DNA of 64,000 nucleotides from an uncultured Gammaproteobacteria bacterium. Its GTDB lineage: Bacteria; Patescibacteriota; Patescibacteriia; Magasanikbacterales; UBA922. The translations under genes and the position numbers were made by a program. Of this stretch, positions 9,545 to 52,910 are shown piece by piece. The notes beneath the pieces are model-generated. The model had not been told where the DNA came from. It saw nothing but the letters and a program-made list of their open reading frames with translations, and did not search any database. Positions within the stretch are counted from its first letter, which is position 1, and every line of letters starts with the position of its first letter. The stretch covers positions 49,406 through 113,405 of the forward strand of contig CAZFKS010000001.1 in assembly GCA_964519725.1 (NCBI GenBank), in the 5' to 3' direction.

Positions 9545-9988
9545 ATGTTGCCGGTCAAAAATCTCCTTGCAAAACTCTGGGGTTACCGTGCCCAATTTTT
9601 GCGGTACTTTATTGTGGGCGGGACTGCCTTTATCCTGGACATGAGCAGTCTGTACTTTATTAAAGAGTACTTTGACCTGGAACCTGTCCAGGCAGTAATC
9701 ATTAATCAGGCCTTTATTTTGGCCTATGTCTTTGCTCTGAATAAAAAATGGTCCTTTGGGGCCAGTGGAGCTACCCACCGTCAATTGGTCCGCTTCCTCA
9801 CTCTAGCCGCCTTTAACTACCTAGTTTCTGTGGGCTGGATCTGGTTTTTCTCCCATATTTTGGGTGTTTACTACCTAATTGCCCGGGTCAGTAACATTAT
9901 TTTAGCCACCAGTTGGAACTTTCTCCTCTACAAACACTGGGTTTATGTGCATAAAACCCCGGCTGAACCCCTTGACAAGACCCTCTAA
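9545..9988 (+). CDS. GtrA-family membrane protein
   Basis: FLRYFIVGGTAFILD... GtrA-like 4-TM small protein. Confidence 0.6.
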   Translation: MLPVKNLLAKLWGYRAQFLRYFIVGGTAFILDMSSLYFIKEYFDLEPVQAVIINQAFILAYVFALNKKWSFGASGATHRQLVRFLTLAAFNYLVSVGWIWFFSHILGVYYLIARVSNIILATSWNFLLYKHWVYVHKTPAEPLDKTL

Positions 9989-10000
9989 GCCCACTATAAT
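9972..10000 (+). promoter_or_regulatory. consensus sigma70 promoter for infA (TTGACA-17-TATAAT)
   Basis: TTGACA 9972-9977, 17-nt spacer, TATAAT 9995-10000, 20 nt upstream of infA ATG; lies in 3' end of GtrA gene. Confidence 0.6.
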
Positions 10001-10020
10001 AGGGCAGTAATTTTCTTGAC

Positions 10021-10236
10021 ATGCCAAAAACAGACGCTATTGAAGTGCGCGGCCGGATTGAAGAAGTTCTTCCGGGCGCGAAATTCCGGGTCATTCTAGA
10101 GAATGCCCACGAAGTTATTGCCCATTTGTCAGGGAAAATGCGCGTGAATAATATTCGCCTTGGCGTAGGTGATGAAGTCAAAGTAGAATTGACTCCATAC
10201 GACCTAACCAAAGGACGGATTACGTTCCGTTTCTAA
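10021..10236 (+). CDS. infA: translation initiation factor IF-1
   Basis: 71 aa, S1-like IF-1 sequence [15 protein letters not shown]... Confidence 0.9.
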
Positions 10237-10255
10237 AATTAATACTTGCTAAAAA

Positions 10256-10349
10256 TCAACCAGTGCGGTGGAGCTAACGGCTAGTGGTCTCTAAGGTGAG
10301 ATAAGGCCAAAGTTAGCAAAGATATCGCGGCAGTGGTTGATGTTTTTTT
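10256..10349 (+). terminator. long hairpin (10-bp stem ATCAACCAGTG/CAGTGGTTGAT enclosing ~60 nt) followed by T7 run; terminator or attenuator between infA and rpmJ
   Basis: inverted repeat read directly, followed by gttttttt. Confidence 0.4.
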
Positions 10350-10373
10350 GCACTTATTTAAGTTTATTTATTT

Positions 10374-10511
10374 ATGAAGGTACAAGCATCGGTCAAGACC
10401 CGTTGCAAAGACTGTAAAGTCATCCGCCGCCAGGGCGTTGTCTTTATTATTTGCAAAAACCCTCGCCACAAACAACGCCAGGGTAAAAAGCAACGTCGCA
10501 AAGCGGCTTAA
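10374..10511 (+). CDS. rpmJ: 50S ribosomal protein L36 (not in ORF track, <60 aa)
   Basis: [37 protein letters not shown]... classic L36 zinc ribbon. Confidence 0.85.
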
Positions 10512-10529
10512 GCTTAATTTAATATATCT

Positions 10530-10916
10530 ATGAGAGTTGCCGGAGTAACTATCCCAAAAGACAAGCGCCTCGTGATTGCGCTTACCTATGTCTACGGTAT
10601 TGGTCCAACCACTGCCAAGAAAATTTTGAGTACTGCTAAAATTTCAGAATCAACTCGGGTTAAAGAATTGTCAGAAGCCCAAGAAGACATGATCCGCACC
10701 ATGGTGGAAAAACAACACACCACTGAAGGTGATTTGCGCCGCCAAATTCAAGCTAATATCAAACGCCTCAAAGATATCAAAGCGCACCGTGGAATTCGCC
10801 ACATGCGCCACCTTACAGTTCGTGGTCAACGCACCAAGACTAATTCTCGGACTGTTCGCGGCAATAAGCGCAATCTTGCCACCAGTGGTAAGAAGCCAGC
10901 GGCTCAAAAGACCTAA
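10530..10916 (+). CDS. rpsM: 30S ribosomal protein S13
   Basis: [25 protein letters not shown]... Confidence 0.9.
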
Positions 10917-18722: not shown

Positions 18723-18805
18723 GTTTTGTCCTGAACCAGCTTCTGTGAACTTTTATAAGTTTAGAGGAGCTGGGTCAGACCGAGCACAACCATTGGAGTC
18801 ATTCC

Positions 18806-19246
18806 ATGTACCGTTCCGTGCTCGTCGTTCTGTTCACCGTTCTCTCCACTTCCTGCACCACGACCCAGGTCGTCACCGACCCGCCGGCGCCCGCCTACGT
18901 CCGCGACCCGCGGCTCGGAGGCGACCCCGAGGCCCCGGAACCCGAAGTACTGAAGATCTTGGTGGAGCAGTTGAGCTCCGTTCCGGGCCTCTACCTCTTC
19001 AACCCGAAGAAGGGTGAGCTCGCCCCCGTGGAAAACGGCTACATCTACCGCTCGAAGGCGCACGTGATCACGACGATCACGGACCTGAGCGGAGAGTGGT
19101 ACTGCCAAGCCCGGGTGAGCTACTGGTTCACGAAGGACCAGACGAAGCGGTACTACTACCGCCTGAAGGGCTTCTCCATCAACGGCGGTGAGCCGTGCAG
19201 CCTGGAGCTACTCCTGAAGGACGAAGACCTGTCACCGCCCGACTAA
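18806..19246 (+). CDS. high-GC (~65%) secreted/lipoprotein-like hypothetical protein
   Basis: signal peptide MYRSVLVVLFTVLSTSC; GC3-rich codon usage unlike every neighbouring gene; alternative frames 18679..19017 and minus 18761..19108 are GC-frame artefacts. Confidence 0.45.
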   Translation: MYRSVLVVLFTVLSTSCTTTQVVTDPPAPAYVRDPRLGGDPEAPEPEVLKILVEQLSSVPGLYLFNPKKGELAPVENGYIYRSKAHVITTITDLSGEWYCQARVSYWFTKDQTKRYYYRLKGFSINGGEPCSLELLLKDEDLSPPD

Positions 19247-19293
19247 TGTCGCTCGTGAGTCGAGGCGACGCCGGCGCGGAGAACGAACACGAA

Positions 19294-19365
19294 AACCCGT
19301 TCGCCCGCCTGCTCTTAATCTAAATTTGGATTCAGAGCAGGAGGAAAAGCGAACGGGTTTTTTGT
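19294..19365 (+). terminator. large compound hairpin terminator (AACCCGTTCGC...GCGAACGGGTT + T-run)
   Basis: 11-bp outer stem with inner 8-bp stem, followed by TTTTTTG. Confidence 0.6.
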
Positions 19366-31853: not shown

Positions 31854-33068
31854 ATGTTACCCAAGCCACCAGCGCGCCCAAAGTCTAGGAAATTCATTTA
31901 CCTGGACCACGCGGCCGCGACCCCCACTGCCACAGAAGTTGTCAAAGCCATGACCCCATTTTGGAGTCAGTCTTTTGCTAATCCGTCAGCTTTGTATGCC
32001 GCGGGTGTGGCGAGCCGTGAGGCGGTTGAAGCCGCGCGGGAAGTAGTGGCTGAGACTCTCAAAACTCAAGCGCGGAATATTATTTTTACGAGTGGCGGCA
32101 CTGAAGCCAATAATTTAGGTATTGTTGGATTAATTACTGAACTGAAAAAAATTCACAAAAAGTTACACATCATTACCACCGCCATTGAACATCATTCGGT
32201 TTTAAATCCAATTAAAGCCTTGGCCAAAACTGGCGTGAGCGTAACGTATTTACCAGTGAATGCACAGGGTGAAATTTCGGTAAAAGAATTAGTGAAAGCA
32301 ATTCGTCCAGACACGGCACTTATTTCAGTCATGTACGCGAACAATGAAATTGGAACCATTAATCCAATTGCGGAAATTGGCCGTGAACTTTTAAAATATC
32401 GCAAAGCACATGGCACACAATGGCCATATTTCCACACTGACGCGTGTCAGGCCACTGGTACTTTGGATTTGTCAGTGGAAAAATTGCACGTTGATTTACT
32501 AACTTTAAATGGCAGTAAAATTTACGGACCAAAAGGCAGTGGCGCCCTGTTTGCGCGCGCGGGCGTGCCTTTGTCACCAATTATGTTTGGTGGTGATCAA
32601 GAAAAAACTTTGCGCAGTGGCACAGAAAATGTGCCCGCGATTGTTGGCTTAGCCAAAGCGTTAGAATTAGTAAATAAAAATAAAATAAAAGAAGCAGCGC
32701 GCGAAGCAAAATTGCGTGATTTTTTTTGGGAAAATATTTCCAAAAAAATTCCTGGCGTTTTATTAAATGGACCAACTGAACGTTTGGCTAATAATTTAAA
32801 TGTTTGTTTTCCGGGTTTGGAAGGGGAGACACTGGCGATTTATTTAGATGCGTACGGAATTGCTTGTGCGACTGGTTCAGCCTGCGCCACAGACCAAGAC
32901 GATGCGTCACACGTGTTAATTGCTTGTGGGCGCAGTGGTGACGAAGCTAAAGCCAGTTTGCGTTTTTCATTGGGTCGTAGCACCACTAAACAAGATTTGG
33001 ATTTTGTTTTAAAATATTTACCTGACCTAGTTAAAACTTTGCGGGCCAGTGCAGCCATTAAAAAATAA
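31854..33068 (+). CDS. cysteine desulfurase (NifS/IscS-like, aminotransferase class V)
   Basis: YLDHAAATP N-terminus, SGHK-type Lys region; start ATG 31854. Confidence 0.8.
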   Translation: MLPKPPARPKSRKFIYLDHAAATPTATEVVKAMTPFWSQSFANPSALYAAGVASREAVEAAREVVAETLKTQARNIIFTSGGTEANNLGIVGLITELKKIHKKLHIITTAIEHHSVLNPIKALAKTGVSVTYLPVNAQGEISVKELVKAIRPDTALISVMYANNEIGTINPIAEIGRELLKYRKAHGTQWPYFHTDACQATGTLDLSVEKLHVDLLTLNGSKIYGPKGSGALFARAGVPLSPIMFGGDQEKTLRSGTENVPAIVGLAKALELVNKNKIKEAAREAKLRDFFWENISKKIPGVLLNGPTERLANNLNVCFPGLEGETLAIYLDAYGIACATGSACATDQDDASHVLIACGRSGDEAKASLRFSLGRSTTKQDLDFVLKYLPDLVKTLRASAAIKK

Positions 33069-33069
33069 A

Positions 33070-33133
33070 CTAAAAACCACCCGCCTCCACGCCTGAAGAG
33101 AATAATTCTCAGCAGACGCAGTGTCGGGTGGTT
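33070..33133 (+). repeat. 64-bp direct repeat copy 1 (internal hairpin with AACCACCCG/CGGGTGGTT ends and central GAGAATAATTCTC palindrome)
   Basis: 63/64 identical to copy 2; begins 1 nt after cysteine desulfurase stop. Confidence 0.8.
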
Positions 33134-33176
33134 GAGGAGGAACCAGTTGGGAGTACCCAACACTACGGCCCCTAAC

Positions 33177-33428
33177 CTAGGCGCGCACCTCCTCGCCAGT
33201 ACCTGGCAACTCTAGGAGCCACTGGAAGAATCCGATCAACCCCTGCAGAACTGCACGGATCTTTTCGGCCAGGACATACGCCTGGATGACGATTCCAGCG
33301 CCCAGGATTACTCCAAAGAGACAAGAACCCTCCACCAAGAGATCAGCTCCGAAGAGCAGCGCCCCGAGTGGTGGAGGCAGACGATCAATGAGATCTTGCA
33401 TACTTGCTCTATATATCATTTCAAGCAA
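33177..33428 (-). CDS. GC-rich small hydrophobic ORF (83 aa) inside repeat-bounded cassette
   Basis: ORF with upstream TTGACA -35 on minus strand; ~58% GC; coding status uncertain. Confidence 0.25.
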   Translation of the reverse strand: MLEMIYRASMQDLIDRLPPPLGALLFGADLLVEGSCLFGVILGAGIVIQAYVLAEKIRAVLQGLIGFFQWLLELPGTGEEVRA

Positions 33429-33447
33429 TTTGTCAATATTTACCTAA

Positions 33448-33511
33448 CTAAAAACCACCCGCCTCCACGCCTGAAGAGAATAATTCTCTGCAGACGCAGT
33501 GTCGGGTGGTT
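33448..33511 (+). repeat. 64-bp direct repeat copy 2
   Basis: single A/T difference from copy 1 at position 41. Confidence 0.8.
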
Positions 33512-33561
33512 CCCAGCACCACGGTCGCGGTGCGACTACTTAGCCTGGACCAGGCGCGTGC

Positions 33562-33663
33562 ACTCACGTTCGACCTCCGCGAGGAGGCTTTGAAAAGAGG
33601 TTAGATCCGTGATCACAAGCTTCACGTAGTGGTACATGGGGTCCTCCTGCCGAATGGTGTCGG
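33562..33663 (-). CDS. GC-rich mini-ORF (33 aa) with strong AGGAGG RBS
   Basis: MYHYVKLVITDLTSFQSLLAEVERECTRLVQAK read on minus strand; speculative. Confidence 0.2.
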
Positions 33664-33703
33664 CACATATACAGTAACCCTGAAATTGAAATATTGTCAA
33701 AAT

Positions 33704-35805: not shown

Positions 35806-36136
35806 TATGTTCCACGACATATCTTTGCCTATAACAACGTTGTAAGCAAAGTGTGTGCCGTGGAACCTCCTTTCAGGTGCGTGGCACGCTCACCTGGGCG
35901 GGTTGGTGGAGAACACAACAGTCATCGTGACCGTCGTCTCCGGTGGGAGCTTGGCGATCTGGCCTTCAAGAAGGCCTTTCACCATGCTCACTACGGGATC
36001 GACTGCTTCTGCAGTCGAAGGGATTTCGCGCCGATCCTGGTTAGTATGCTCGCCGTAGGTGACGAGCGTACCATCAGTCTGGCGCGAAACACTAAATGAT
36101 ACTCGCATGGCCCCAAAATACCTGTTTCTAAAAAAT

Positions 36137-39594: not shown

Positions 39595-39675
39595 TTTACC
39601 TTGATTTTTTATTATAAATAAGCTAAATTAAGCGCGCTTTGACAGCGTTTACCAAGGGGGTGAGCGACTTGTCGA

Positions 39676-40569
39676 ATGGGGGTATACATGAATCTCACAG
39701 TCGCGCCGACCGCCATTAAGGCGGTCAACGAAGCGCTCGAACACAACGACCGAGTGGGCTGGAAGCCCGCGCTCGGCCTCGTGCTCGGCACGGGCCTCGG
39801 CAAGGTTGCCGAGCTCGTCGAAGATCCCATCAAACTGCCTTTCAGCAAGCTGTGGCCCGAGGTCACCAGCAAACTGGAGGGGCACGCCAAGGAGCTCATT
39901 CTCGGCGACATCGGGGGTCTCCCGGTCGCGGTCTTCTCCGGACGGATCCACGGCTACGAGGGGTACGAGCCGAACGTCGTGGTTCAGCCGGTACTGCTCG
40001 CGCAGGCGCTCGCCGCCGAGAGCATCGTGCTGACGAACGCGGCCGGCGCCCTGAACACTGACCTGGCCAAGGGCCAGATCCTCGTGCTCAGCGATCATAT
40101 CAACCTCACCGGGCGCTCGCCGCTCAAGGGCCCGAACAACGAGGCCCTGGGCACGCGCTTCCCGGGACAGGGGGCCATCTACGGCCGCCACAAGGACCTG
40201 ACGGCCCGCGTCATGAGCGAGTTCAAGGCCACAGTCCTCAAATCGGGACAGATCGAGCCGCGCAACGGCGTCTATCTCGGGGTCAACGGCCCTGAATTCG
40301 AGACCCCGGCTGAGGTCAAGATGATGCGCGGCCTCGGCGCCGACGTCGTCGGCATGTCGACGGTCCACGAGGCCATCACGGCCAACTGGCTCGGCCTCGG
40401 CGTCATCGGCCTCAGTCTGGTGACCAATGCCACGGGCACGGCCCACGAAGAAGGCGAGATCTCGCACGCCGAAGTGCAGGAAGCCGGCCGAGAAGCTGGT
40501 CCTCGTCTCGTGAAGTTCACGAAGCTCCTTCTGGAGGCGTACCGCAAGGACGTCTTCAAGAAGAGCTGA
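39676..40569 (+). CDS. purine nucleoside phosphorylase (PNP/MTAP family), encoded in a ~65% GC island
   Basis: GTGLG P-loop-like, LTNAAG, VGMSTVHE motifs of PNP family 2; the 454-aa antisense ORF 39649..41013 is a GC-frame artefact. Confidence 0.7.
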   Translation: MGVYMNLTVAPTAIKAVNEALEHNDRVGWKPALGLVLGTGLGKVAELVEDPIKLPFSKLWPEVTSKLEGHAKELILGDIGGLPVAVFSGRIHGYEGYEPNVVVQPVLLAQALAAESIVLTNAAGALNTDLAKGQILVLSDHINLTGRSPLKGPNNEALGTRFPGQGAIYGRHKDLTARVMSEFKATVLKSGQIEPRNGVYLGVNGPEFETPAEVKMMRGLGADVVGMSTVHEAITANWLGLGVIGLSLVTNATGTAHEEGEISHAEVQEAGREAGPRLVKFTKLLLEAYRKDVFKKS

Positions 40570-40718
40570 AGGGCCGCTGTCTGTGCGCCCATCGCCCCTC
40601 CTCTCTGGGAGCGCCCGCGCGCTCCCACCCCAATCCTTTCTCTCCGCCCGCCAGGGTGGAGTTTTATTTAGGGTTTTACTTTTTCTAAAATGTGGTATTA
40701 TTGAGCTAATTATTTTAT

Positions 40719-50226: not shown

Positions 50227-50254
50227 TATTTGGAATTTATCCACACACCAAAAC

Positions 50255-50283
50255 TTGATGTGAGAACAAATGTTCTCTATACT
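50255..50283 (+). promoter_or_regulatory. lexA promoter TTGATG-17-TATACT with LexA (Cheo-type) box GAGAACAAATGTTCTC (50262-50277) filling the spacer
   Basis: 16-bp perfect palindrome containing GAAC-N4-GTTC read directly. Confidence 0.7.
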
Positions 50284-50322
50284 ACTTTTATACGTCAAAC
50301 ATTAATCTTATTAAGCACTGAT

Positions 50323-50907
50323 ATGGCCCCTGACCTTTACCAATCTCGCAAACAAAAGCTCCTCAATTATTTCAACAAATTCAAACAAGTCCCAACCTAT
50401 GATGAAATGGTCAAACTGTTTGATCTAAGGTCCAAAGGTTCGCTCCACCGGTATGTAGAAAAATTTATTGAAGATGGAATTTTAGAAAAAAATGCAACTG
50501 GAAAATTAGTTGCGACCGAGAGAATGTTTGGCCTAAAAGTTTTGGGAGTAGTGCAAGCTGGATTTCCAACAACGGCTGAAGAAGATGCCAGTGCCAAAAC
50601 CGTAAGCTTAGACCGTTGGCTCATTGAACACCCTCAAGCCAGTTACTTGCTCACTGTTTCTGGAGACTCAATGATTGATGCCGGTATTATGCAAGGTGAT
50701 ATGGTCATTGTGGACCGCACCAGGAATCCTAAAACTGGAGATATCGTGGTGGCTGAAGTTGACCATGATTGGACCATGAAGTATTACATTAAAAGGGGAG
50801 AGCGCGTAATTCTCCGCCCTGCCAACCGCAATTATCCAGACATTCACCCCCAATTAGAGCTTAAAATCGCTGGGGTCGTGGCCAGTGTTATCCGTAAATA
50901 CTTATAA
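50323..50907 (+). CDS. lexA: LexA repressor (S24 peptidase)
   Basis: N-terminal wHTH, Ala-Gly cleavage region, SGDSM and K in ...TMKYYIKRG; start ATG 50323 downstream of promoter. Confidence 0.75.
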   Translation: MAPDLYQSRKQKLLNYFNKFKQVPTYDEMVKLFDLRSKGSLHRYVEKFIEDGILEKNATGKLVATERMFGLKVLGVVQAGFPTTAEEDASAKTVSLDRWLIEHPQASYLLTVSGDSMIDAGIMQGDMVIVDRTRNPKTGDIVVAEVDHDWTMKYYIKRGERVILRPANRNYPDIHPQLELKIAGVVASVIRKYL

Positions 50908-50908
50908 T

Positions 50909-52153
50909 ATGAAAATGCCTGTTTCTGAAGCCAAAGCCATTGTTCACATTGATGGCGATGCTTTCTTTGCTAGTTGCGAACAAGCTGTTAACCCAAAACT
51001 TCAGGGCAAACCAGTAGTTGTTGGGGCTGACCGTGGCATTGCCACTGCTTTTAGCCAAGAAGCCAAGCAGCGTGGGGTGCGTCGCGGCATGACTAAACTT
51101 GAAATCCTCAGGATTTGTCCAGACGCTATCTTACTTCCCGGTGATTATGAAACTTACACCTTATTTTCCAAACGCATATTTGCGATCATGCGCCGATTTA
51201 CTGACCAAGTTGAAGAGTACAGCATTGACGAAGGCTTCATGGATATTACAGGGTTAGATAAAGTAGAAAAAATGTCTTACGCTGACATTGCCAAATTAAT
51301 TAAAAAAACCATTCAAACTGAATTAGGGATCACAGTCTCAGTTGGTCTTGCCCCAACCAAAGTCTTAGCCAAACTCGCCTCAACTAGTAGTAAACCAAAT
51401 GGCTTTGGTGTAATTACCCAAAAAGATTTACCTGAATATTTGCGCGATTTTTCTGTGGACACTATCTGGGGCGTAGGCCGGAACACGGCCGACTATATGC
51501 GCCGCCTTAGTATTTTTACAGCCTATGACTTTGCGGTTAAACCAATTGGGTTTATCAAAGATAATTTTACCAAACCACACCAAGACATTTGGTATGAATT
51601 AAATGGTCAATCAGTGTACAGTGTAATTTCTGAAGAAAAACAAACCTATGCTTCAATTTCTAAAACTCACACTTTTCACGCTCAAAAGGGGAGCCGGGCG
51701 TTGGTATATGCCGAACTAGTCACTAATCTAGAAAATGCTTGTGCCAAAGCACGTAATCATGATTTAGTGGCCAAACGAGTGTCTATTTTCTTAAAATCTG
51801 AATCATTTAATATTCAAGGACTCGAAGTAACTTTAGAACGCGCCAGTGCTTTTCCAATGGATCTATTAAGTGCGGTTAAGCCATTATTTGAAAAATTATA
51901 CAGTGATAAAGTTCAGTACCGTGCCACTGGCATTGTTTTATCTGACCTCACCGATGCTTGCGCTGTTCAAACGACTTTGTTTGAAGCCCCAACCACACTT
52001 TCCACCTTACAAAAAACTTACGAAGCCATTGATGCTCTTGCCCTCAAATTTGGCAAACACACGGTGCATAGTGCCAGTAGTTTAGCCAAAGAAATTAAAA
52101 AACCAATGGAACTAGCTAGTTTGCCATTGGTTTCCCTAGGATTTGTTCGTTAG
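50909..52153 (+). CDS. dinB: DNA polymerase IV (Y-family)
   Basis: IVHIDGDAFFASCEQ N-terminus; overlaps lexA stop. Confidence 0.8.
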   Translation: MKMPVSEAKAIVHIDGDAFFASCEQAVNPKLQGKPVVVGADRGIATAFSQEAKQRGVRRGMTKLEILRICPDAILLPGDYETYTLFSKRIFAIMRRFTDQVEEYSIDEGFMDITGLDKVEKMSYADIAKLIKKTIQTELGITVSVGLAPTKVLAKLASTSSKPNGFGVITQKDLPEYLRDFSVDTIWGVGRNTADYMRRLSIFTAYDFAVKPIGFIKDNFTKPHQDIWYELNGQSVYSVISEEKQTYASISKTHTFHAQKGSRALVYAELVTNLENACAKARNHDLVAKRVSIFLKSESFNIQGLEVTLERASAFPMDLLSAVKPLFEKLYSDKVQYRATGIVLSDLTDACAVQTTLFEAPTTLSTLQKTYEAIDALALKFGKHTVHSASSLAKEIKKPMELASLPLVSLGFVR

Positions 52154-52154
52154 C

Positions 52155-52335
52155 TTGAGAGGGGTTGTGCAGCAGGACCCCTCAGAAGAGGAGGGTGTCG
52201 AAAGACTGGCCCGGGAACGCCGTATCCCGGCTCCAAGACCGTACCGGTCAGTCTGAGGGGGGATTGAGATATTCAACTGACTAGCGCGGTCTGTATTCTA
52301 TCGGCATATCCAAGGGGTCCTGCCGCACAAAAGCA
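52155..52335 (+). ncRNA. GC-rich (~58%) structured element: 18-bp closing helix (52165-52182 / 52313-52330, one A.C mismatch) enclosing 129 nt with a 9-bp inner helix and hairpins
   Basis: base pairing read directly; no ORF; family unknown. Confidence 0.35.
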
Positions 52336-52400
52336 TACTACTCAAAAAGATATTCAATGTCAAGATTGACCCTAAGAAAACATTTTGCTATCCTGATCGC

Positions 52401-52910
52401 ATGAAACCATATTCTGATCGAATTATTTTCTTTGATACTGAATTTACTGACCTTGATCCAAAGGTAGGAGAGTTGTTATCAATTGGTTTAATTAAATACA
52501 CTGGTGAAAAATTATATTTAGAATTAGAAAGTTCAGCTGAACCACACCCATGGGTCGTAGAACATGTCTTACCATTCTTAACTGAACCAAAAATTAGCCG
52601 TGAAAAAGCTAAAGAATTAATTAGAGACTTTGTCGGACCAGATGAACCATATCTGGTGGCGTATGTTAATCAATTTGATGCGATTTACTGGTACGAATTA
52701 TTTGGCTCACCAAAAGATCACCCGGCTTACTGGATCCCAATTGACTTTGCTTCAATTTTATTTGGTTTAGGACTGTCACCAAATAGCATGGGCGTACACG
52801 CTTTTTTTACTGACCTAGGAATTAATAAAGAAGATTATCAAGAACATAATGCCCTGTCTGATGCCGCTTTATTACGTGACACTTACCTAGCTTTAGAAAA
52901 AAGAGGGTAG
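52401..52910 (+). CDS. DEDD-family 3'-5' exonuclease (oligoribonuclease/RNase T-like)
   Basis: IIFFDTEFTDLDP Exo I motif. Confidence 0.45.
   Translation: MKPYSDRIIFFDTEFTDLDPKVGELLSIGLIKYTGEKLYLELESSAEPHPWVVEHVLPFLTEPKISREKAKELIRDFVGPDEPYLVAYVNQFDAIYWYELFGSPKDHPAYWIPIDFASILFGLGLSPNSMGVHAFFTDLGINKEDYQEHNALSDAALLRDTYLALEKRG

Follow-up and report, generated by a model that had tools for sequence, protein, structure and literature searches.

The GC-rich element between dinB and an exonuclease gene in the DNA analysed here (a single stretch of 64,000 nt, called the window below) is interpreted, with somewhat better than even confidence, as a minus-strand gene, about 235 nt long, for a stand-alone, lineage-specific small RNA. 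It would represent a new, lineage-restricted family of small RNAs, unexceptional in general kind, whose distribution, judged from the sequences compared, appears so far to take in only some Candidatus Magasanikbacteria. Transcription would start at about position 52330 from a sigma-70-type promoter and would end at about 52097, at a hairpin and U-run within the 3' end of dinB. The predicted RNA would fold into a Y shape, in which the 5' end pairs with a stretch close to the 3' end to form a helix (P1), with two hairpins (P2 and P3) inside it. The candidate has a defined strand, defined ends and a fold, with compensatory change across nine variants and a testable conserved motif. Coordinates are those of the window and are collected in Table 1.

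Locus and neighbouring genes

Local gene order is M23 peptidase, LexA-like S24 peptidase, Y-family polymerase (dinB), the element, DEDD exonuclease and PIG-L deacetylase. As originally predicted, the element begins 2 nt past the dinB stop codon (TAG, 52151-52153). The RNA gene is thus placed in a damage-response cluster with a LexA box, and its promoter region is back-to-back with that of the exonuclease gene. The LexA box, GAACAAATGTTC, was the sole perfect GAAC-N4-GTTC box in a scan of the 64-kb window and is sequence evidence for a putative Gram-positive-style SOS operator in this lineage. Since the box overlaps the lexA promoter, the lexA-dinB operon, which opposes the RNA, is expected to be damage-inducible. 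LexA control of the RNA itself was considered and rejected, the only perfect box in the window being the one at the lexA promoter.

The window derives from a bacterium resembling Candidatus Magasanikbacteria (Patescibacteria/CPR), the group in which nearly all homologues of the exonuclease (52401-52910) were found. The exonuclease -10 box ends 6 nt ahead of the ATG at 52401, so the exonuclease mRNA is probably leaderless. In more distant Patescibacteria (L029, L035, L051, L057 and L070), one or two tRNA genes in the same orientation immediately precede the exonuclease homologue; this hints that the enzyme acts on RNA 3' ends in the manner of RNase T and not in DnaQ-like proofreading.

Table 1. 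Features of the predicted RNA gene and its surroundings (window coordinates).
Feature	Position	Strand	Basis or remark
LexA-like S24 peptidase gene	50230-50907		
Cheo-type LexA box GAACAAATGTTC	50264-50275		between -35 and -10 of the lexA-dinB promoter (50255-50283)
Y-family (DinB/UmuC-type) polymerase gene	50885..52153	+	IMS and IMS_C domains; convergent with predicted RNA
Terminator-like hairpin AAACCAAUGG...CCAUUGGUUU and U-run	~52136->52094	-	intrinsic-terminator-like; consensus prediction
Predicted primary transcript, about 234-235 nt	52097..52330	-	inferred from promoter and terminator
Single-stranded CU-rich 3' tail CCCCUCUCAA	52155..52164	-	unpaired probability 1.00
P1 3' arm UCUGAGGGGUCCUGCUGCACAA	52165..52186	-	minimum-energy fold, covariation
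Internal unpaired CU tract ACCCUCCUCUUCU	52184..52196	-	fold
P3 hairpin (CCGGG-N10-CCCGG)	52208..52234	-	fold
P2 long hairpin, UCCCCCCUC in apical loop	52237..52291	-	mean unpaired probability of tract 0.84
P1 5' arm UUGUGCGGCAGGACCCCUUGGA	52309..52330	-	minimum-energy fold, covariation
Predicted -10 box TAGTAT of RNA promoter	52335..52340	-	17-nt spacer
Predicted -35 box TTGACA of RNA promoter	52358..52363	-	back-to-back with exonuclease -35 box
Predicted exonuclease promoter TTGACC-17-TATCCT	52366..52394	+	consensus match
DEDD (RNase_T family) exonuclease gene	52401..52910	+	homologues with PF00929; divergent from predicted RNA

Relatives with and without the element

Syntenic loci were fetched by means of the exonuclease protein. 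Counterparts of the element were found in the same place in eight further distinct Magasanikbacteria sequences: L002 (identical in L003-5), L010, L006 (with a copy in L007), L008, L094, L095 (near-identical in L096), L011 and L015. They are very divergent and lie back-to-back with the exonuclease promoter. Together with the window they make up nine variants in about five sequence types, the interiors of which are unalignable between types. Across the variants the folded parts span ~160-260 nt and the predicted primary transcripts ~220-310 nt.

The element was missing at L001/L009, L089, L090, L091 and L012-14, and these loci were also without an outward promoter or terminator hairpin. L001/L009 carry the closest relative of the exonuclease (87% identity); absence of the element there and from L089, L090 and L091 implies that it is not essential, having been either dispensable or lost. 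The spacing between dinB and the exonuclease gene is <100 nt in most Magasanikbacteria, so the RNA gene is either an addition in a sub-lineage or has been lost repeatedly. The G-rich spacer that precedes the L027 exonuclease gene was considered as a further member and was rejected, being not significantly structured (z ~ -1).

Predicted promoter, terminator and transcript

TTGACA-17-TAGTAT (52363->52335) was the best sigma-70-like site between 50100 and 53000, with 10 of 12 consensus matches. It ends 4 nt short of the closing helix, and the predicted transcription start falls at ~52328-52331. Every variant has an outward TTGAC(A/G/T) box, a spacer of 17-19 nt and a TAnnnN box, followed 2-5 nt on by the 5' arm of the helix. 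In the relatives this promoter was located by regular-expression scan in seven of eight cases and by eye in L002 (TTGACT); the helix 5' arm started 2-5 nt past the -10 box in all eight loci scanned. The -35 boxes of the RNA and exonuclease promoters together make a near-palindrome, TGTCAA-GA-TTGACC (52358-52371); competition between them for RNA polymerase, or a common operator, is probable.

At the other end of the transcript, the terminator-like hairpin sits within the last 19 codons of dinB, which leaves ~57 nt of dinB antisense to the RNA 3' end. A terminator hairpin followed by a U-run was also present in L002, L006, L010 and L011, and was not found in the element-less loci L009, L089 and L090. 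The promoter and terminator of the RNA are consensus matches, and on this basis the RNA gene most likely has both signals of its own. The arrangement that generally marks an independent small RNA, namely a conserved structure between its own promoter and a Rho-independent terminator, is found here by consensus predictions.

In the variants whose terminator lies within dinB, the 3' end of the RNA would be antisense to the LexA-controlled lexA-dinB transcript. The RNA might act purely in cis, with antisense or convergent transcription into the dinB 3' end lowering lexA-dinB mRNA by double-stranded RNA cleavage or polymerase collision, and with the structure serving merely to stabilise the transcript. 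Such an effect would suit the damage-inducible operon on the opposing strand, with its LexA box GAACAAATGTTC, and in the window, L002, L006/8 and L010 the predicted terminator lies ~57 nt into dinB. However, the overlap is missing in L011, where the terminator is intergenic and comes before the dinB stop codon, and in L015, where a 142-aa ORF intervenes, so cis-antisense action on dinB cannot be the role shared by all variants. The feature conserved alongside the RNA is, moreover, the exonuclease promoter and not dinB, and the conserved exposed CU tracts and large conserved fold are left unexplained. A purely cis-acting role is accordingly judged unlikely.

Closing helix, fold and strand

The 18-nt arms of the closing helix were found as originally described, with TTGTGCAGCAGGACCCCT (52165-52182) pairing with 52313-52330 around one A.C mismatch. 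The two arms were the only matches in the window at up to three mismatches, against 0.03 expected by chance. On the minus strand P1 is longer, with 22 uninterrupted pairs between 52309-52330 and 52165-52186, because three G.U pairs on that strand are A.C mismatches on the plus strand. The CCGGG-N10-CCCGG hairpin (52211-52230) was likewise recovered, in the minimum-energy folds of both strands. For the proposed 9-bp inner helix, AGACTGGCC/GGTCAGTCT, the complementarity exists (eight Watson-Crick pairs and one G.T), but the helix is unused in the minimum-energy folds of both strands, in which GGTCAGTCT pairs with CAACTGAC; it is only an alternative pairing.

A three-way junction is seen in both the minimum-energy and the consensus folds. 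The 3' tail CCCCUCUCAA is conserved in types A and B, and could alternatively pair with GAGGGG of the P1 3' arm. A near-perfect P1 of 22-32 bp would be a substrate of the RNase III type, from which it may be conjectured that the mature RNA is the excised core.

Fold z-scores for the element were -6.3 on the minus strand versus -4.2 on the plus strand, and over four variants they were -6.3, -5.9, -7.4 and -6.2 (minus) versus -4.2, -3.3, -4.8 and -1.8 (plus). The minus-strand fold was more stable by 2-15 kcal/mol in all six variants compared. Among 82 exonuclease-upstream regions, uninterrupted long-range helices of 20-28 bp (G.U allowed) occurred on the minus strand only and at element-bearing loci only. 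Several P1 pairs are U.G in most sequences and become C.A mismatches on the plus strand.

These observations bear on the view from which the analysis began, that of a plus-strand element downstream of dinB; within the dinB 3' UTR such a structure might serve as a stabiliser, insulator or terminator substitute. The plus-strand fold does beat shuffled sequence (z = -4.2), and no other plus-strand terminator follows dinB. Against this, the plus-strand fold is the weaker one in every variant, many U.G pairs of the minus-strand P1 turn into C.A mismatches, the plus strand lacks a U-run after the helix, and a conserved outward minus-strand promoter abuts the helix. A 3' UTR structure is given only a slim chance. 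Four lines of evidence (helix G.U pairs, fold stability, and the predicted promoter and terminator) point to the minus strand at the level of sequence. The proposal of a novel structured noncoding RNA, one of three candidates in the original prediction, is supported, with its strand changed from plus, downstream of dinB, to minus.

Covariation

Compensatory change, named in the original prediction as a check on the structure, was found in P1 and in the inner helices of type B. Across five variants, 93.6% of P1 cells were standard pairs and nine of the 22 pairs had changed on both sides; none of 500 shuffles reached this pairing value, and sliding the P1 partner by 1-3 columns left only 40-55% paired. 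In the consensus fold of the four type-B variants (P1 of 27 bp, a short P1b, a long P2, a P3 hairpin with a CCCUCC loop, and the terminator), 96.9% of 74 pairs were kept, with double changes in inner helices too. The sample is small (nine sequences in five types) and the statistics correspondingly weak, so that these numbers support the structure and do not prove it.

Homology searches

The window was scanned with Rfam 15 (4227 models, among them RNase P, 6S, SRP, tmRNA, Y RNA, HEARO, OLE, ROOL, GOLLD and raiA). At the gathering threshold three tRNAs and a group I intron were returned, all elsewhere in the window. At E<=10 the region 51900-52600 gave chance snoRNA and lncRNA matches only, and at E<=5 five related loci gave nothing at the element; the scan suggested with the original prediction thus assigns the element to no family. 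The resemblance to RNase P noted at that stage was not borne out: no RNase P model matched, the GAAAG...CCGGCUCCAAG text lies opposite to the RNA, on the plus strand, and an RNase P RNA would call for a P4 helix formed from CR-I and CR-V and a length of at least about 250-400 nt.

A 6S-like closing stem had also been proposed, and the RNA might be a divergent RNA of the 6S type that binds RNA polymerase, with P1 as closing stem and the junction as central bubble. Sequences of 6S RNAs are poorly conserved between phyla. The size fits (~160-260 nt folded, ~220-310 nt as predicted primary transcripts), the 5' and 3' ends pair, and type B has an 11x9-nt internal loop after P1, a partial resemblance. 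No 6S family was matched, however, at E<=10 in the window or at E<=5 in the five relatives. The fold is a three-way junction and not a rod with a central bubble, P1 is nearly perfect and without interrupting bulges, and the gene is missing at the locus in close relatives. This identity is considered very unlikely.

No second copy of the element was found, either in ~700 kb of related loci or in the window, where BLAST (7-nt words), regular-expression motifs and a window-wide promoter-plus-helix scan returned the element alone. This single-copy state fails the copy test set for a MITE with terminal inverted repeats, and the arms need G.U pairs that would be mismatches as DNA. A MITE, or an inert GC-rich relic of horizontal transfer, would be in keeping with presence in some close relatives and absence from others, and with the several other GC-rich islands in the window. 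On the other hand, searches of viral-contig, phage and plasmid collections returned no match to the element, and the one hit from a narrow type-A pattern scan of JGI metagenomes was in a eukaryote-like contig and was judged to be chance. There is no target-site duplication, the arm flanks AGGGG and AAGCA being different. The invariable site, together with compensatory change and G.U pairs in the arms, indicates selection at the RNA level, and a mobile or inert origin is barely credible. Membership in a high-GC insert family was not upheld either: the element shows no sequence similarity to the remaining GC-rich islands, and ORFs are present in at least three of those.

No conserved ORF was found on either strand, and close variants differ by indels whose lengths are not divisible by three, which breaks any reading frame. 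A single ORF within the element reaches 40 aa or more (46 aa, at 52136-52276 of the minus strand), and it is neither hydrophobic nor conserved. A type I toxin-antitoxin pair or small-protein gene, with plus-strand GAGGAGGG as ribosome-binding site and the minus-strand RNA as antitoxin, would fit the strong plus-strand Shine-Dalgarno-like motifs in a LexA-box operon and the closure of the element by 5'-3' end pairing, which is typical of type I toxin mRNAs, but is highly improbable given these coding features and the lack of a start codon at usable distance from the motifs in the window, L002 and L006.

Pyrimidine tracts and possible function

Every variant has two to four unpaired pyrimidine tracts with a CCUCC, CCCUCC or CUCCU core, as well as a CU-rich single-stranded tail after P1. 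CU-type tetramers numbered 79, versus 18 of the complementary GA type. The 8-mer ACCCUCCU, in the tract at 52184..52196, is common to the window, L002-5 and L006-8 (three types), whose interiors are otherwise unalignable. The sole strong purine tract, GAGAGG or GAGGGG, is in the P1 3' arm. A one-position change of this tract in the window is matched by changes in both its P1 partner and the tail, which suggests, from a single event, that the tail may compete for the purine tract.

Our best guess, by analogy, is that the RNA acts as a base-pairing regulator via its CU-rich loops. The unpaired CU tracts would serve as seeds pairing with G-rich RNA, as likeness to RsaE and CcsR suggests. Such a role is puzzling in a genome that barely uses Shine-Dalgarno sequences. 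An upstream AAGG or GAGG motif, even a weak one, is present in only six of 43 window genes, and -10 boxes 6-10 nt ahead of the ATG in many window genes suggest that leaderless mRNAs are widespread; ribosome-binding sites are thus not likely to be the targets. In the neighbouring genes a duplex scan yielded no conserved G-rich partner, the best sites being different and non-homologous in each genome. Repeated anti-Shine-Dalgarno-like tracts in a genome so poor in Shine-Dalgarno sites raise the question of what else they might bind.

One speculative answer, to which very little weight is given, is that the RNA mimics the anti-Shine-Dalgarno tail of 16S rRNA, as a sponge with several CCUCC sites in a mostly leaderless bacterium. 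It would then capture G-rich Shine-Dalgarno-like sites of acquired or phage mRNAs, for example those of the GC-rich islands in the window, or might alternatively titrate a factor that recognises the 16S tail. If true, a sponge RNA of this kind would be a post-transcriptional filter against foreign genes.

Other features of the window

The group I intron matched by Rfam (24667-25038, 77.6 bits, full model) appears to be stand-alone (window 24627-25114). A promoter-like site, TTGACA-19-TACTTT, lies at 24627, just upstream of the intron, the previous ORF ending at 24585. A terminator hairpin follows the intron (25088-25114), and the surroundings of the intron show no tRNA or rRNA exon.

GC-rich islands of ~60-72% GC, in a genome of 43% GC, lie at 18759-19359 (a 146-aa ORF without Pfam match), 39631-40699 (a PNP_UDP_1 phosphorylase gene), 33068-33670 and 35826-36115 (the spacer between sufD and sufS). 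The island at 33068-33670 holds an 83-aa hydrophobic ORF (33177-33428, minus strand) with 66-nt direct repeats, 98% identical, on both sides (33068 and 33446). These islands appear to be inserts gained by horizontal transfer and have no relation to the RNA.

After a perfect TTGACA-17-TATAAT site there is a 540-nt gap (9972-10530) without a plus-strand ORF of at least 100 aa, which precedes an ORF cluster and has no Rfam match at E<=1. The gap may be a leader or a further unannotated RNA.

Comparison with known systems

Regulatory RNAs appear to be little explored in Patescibacteria (CPR), including Magasanikbacteria, and literature searches on noncoding RNAs of CPR/Patescibacteria and on Magasanikbacteria returned no report of this element or of structured noncoding RNAs in these phyla. 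The predicted RNA resembles 6S RNA in size class, in the pairing of its ends into a long closing stem and in the retention of pairing while sequence drifts, but differs from it in having a three-way junction, no Rfam 6S match and no copy at the locus in close relatives.

RNase III processing stalks flank rRNA precursors. As in those stalks, a long near-perfect helix with conserved pairing joins the flanks of a structured core; unlike in rRNA precursors, the core is only ~130-230 nt and is not ribosomal RNA, and processing is a conjecture.

Convergent cis-antisense RNAs and excludon-type arrangements are known at damage-inducible operons. The RNA is comparable to these in pointing toward the LexA-box lexA-dinB operon and, by its predicted terminator, ending inside dinB in most variants, whereas its overlap is short (~57 nt) and is missing in two of five types.

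Small RNAs with C-rich loops include RsaE/RoxS of Firmicutes, CcsR1-4 of Rhodobacter and RepG of Helicobacter, and their C-rich motifs pair with G-rich sites in mRNAs. The element has no sequence or covariance-model similarity to the RsaE/CcsR types, so it may work alike and is not a member. Its RNA is also much larger than theirs and is closed by an end-to-end helix of 22-32 bp, and its host genome is largely without the Shine-Dalgarno sites that those RNAs target. In common with RsaE/RoxS, CcsR1-4 and RepG, the RNA is predicted to have its own promoter and intrinsic terminator, and it carries unpaired C/U-rich motifs (CCUCC, CCCUCC) in its loops and on its 3' side.
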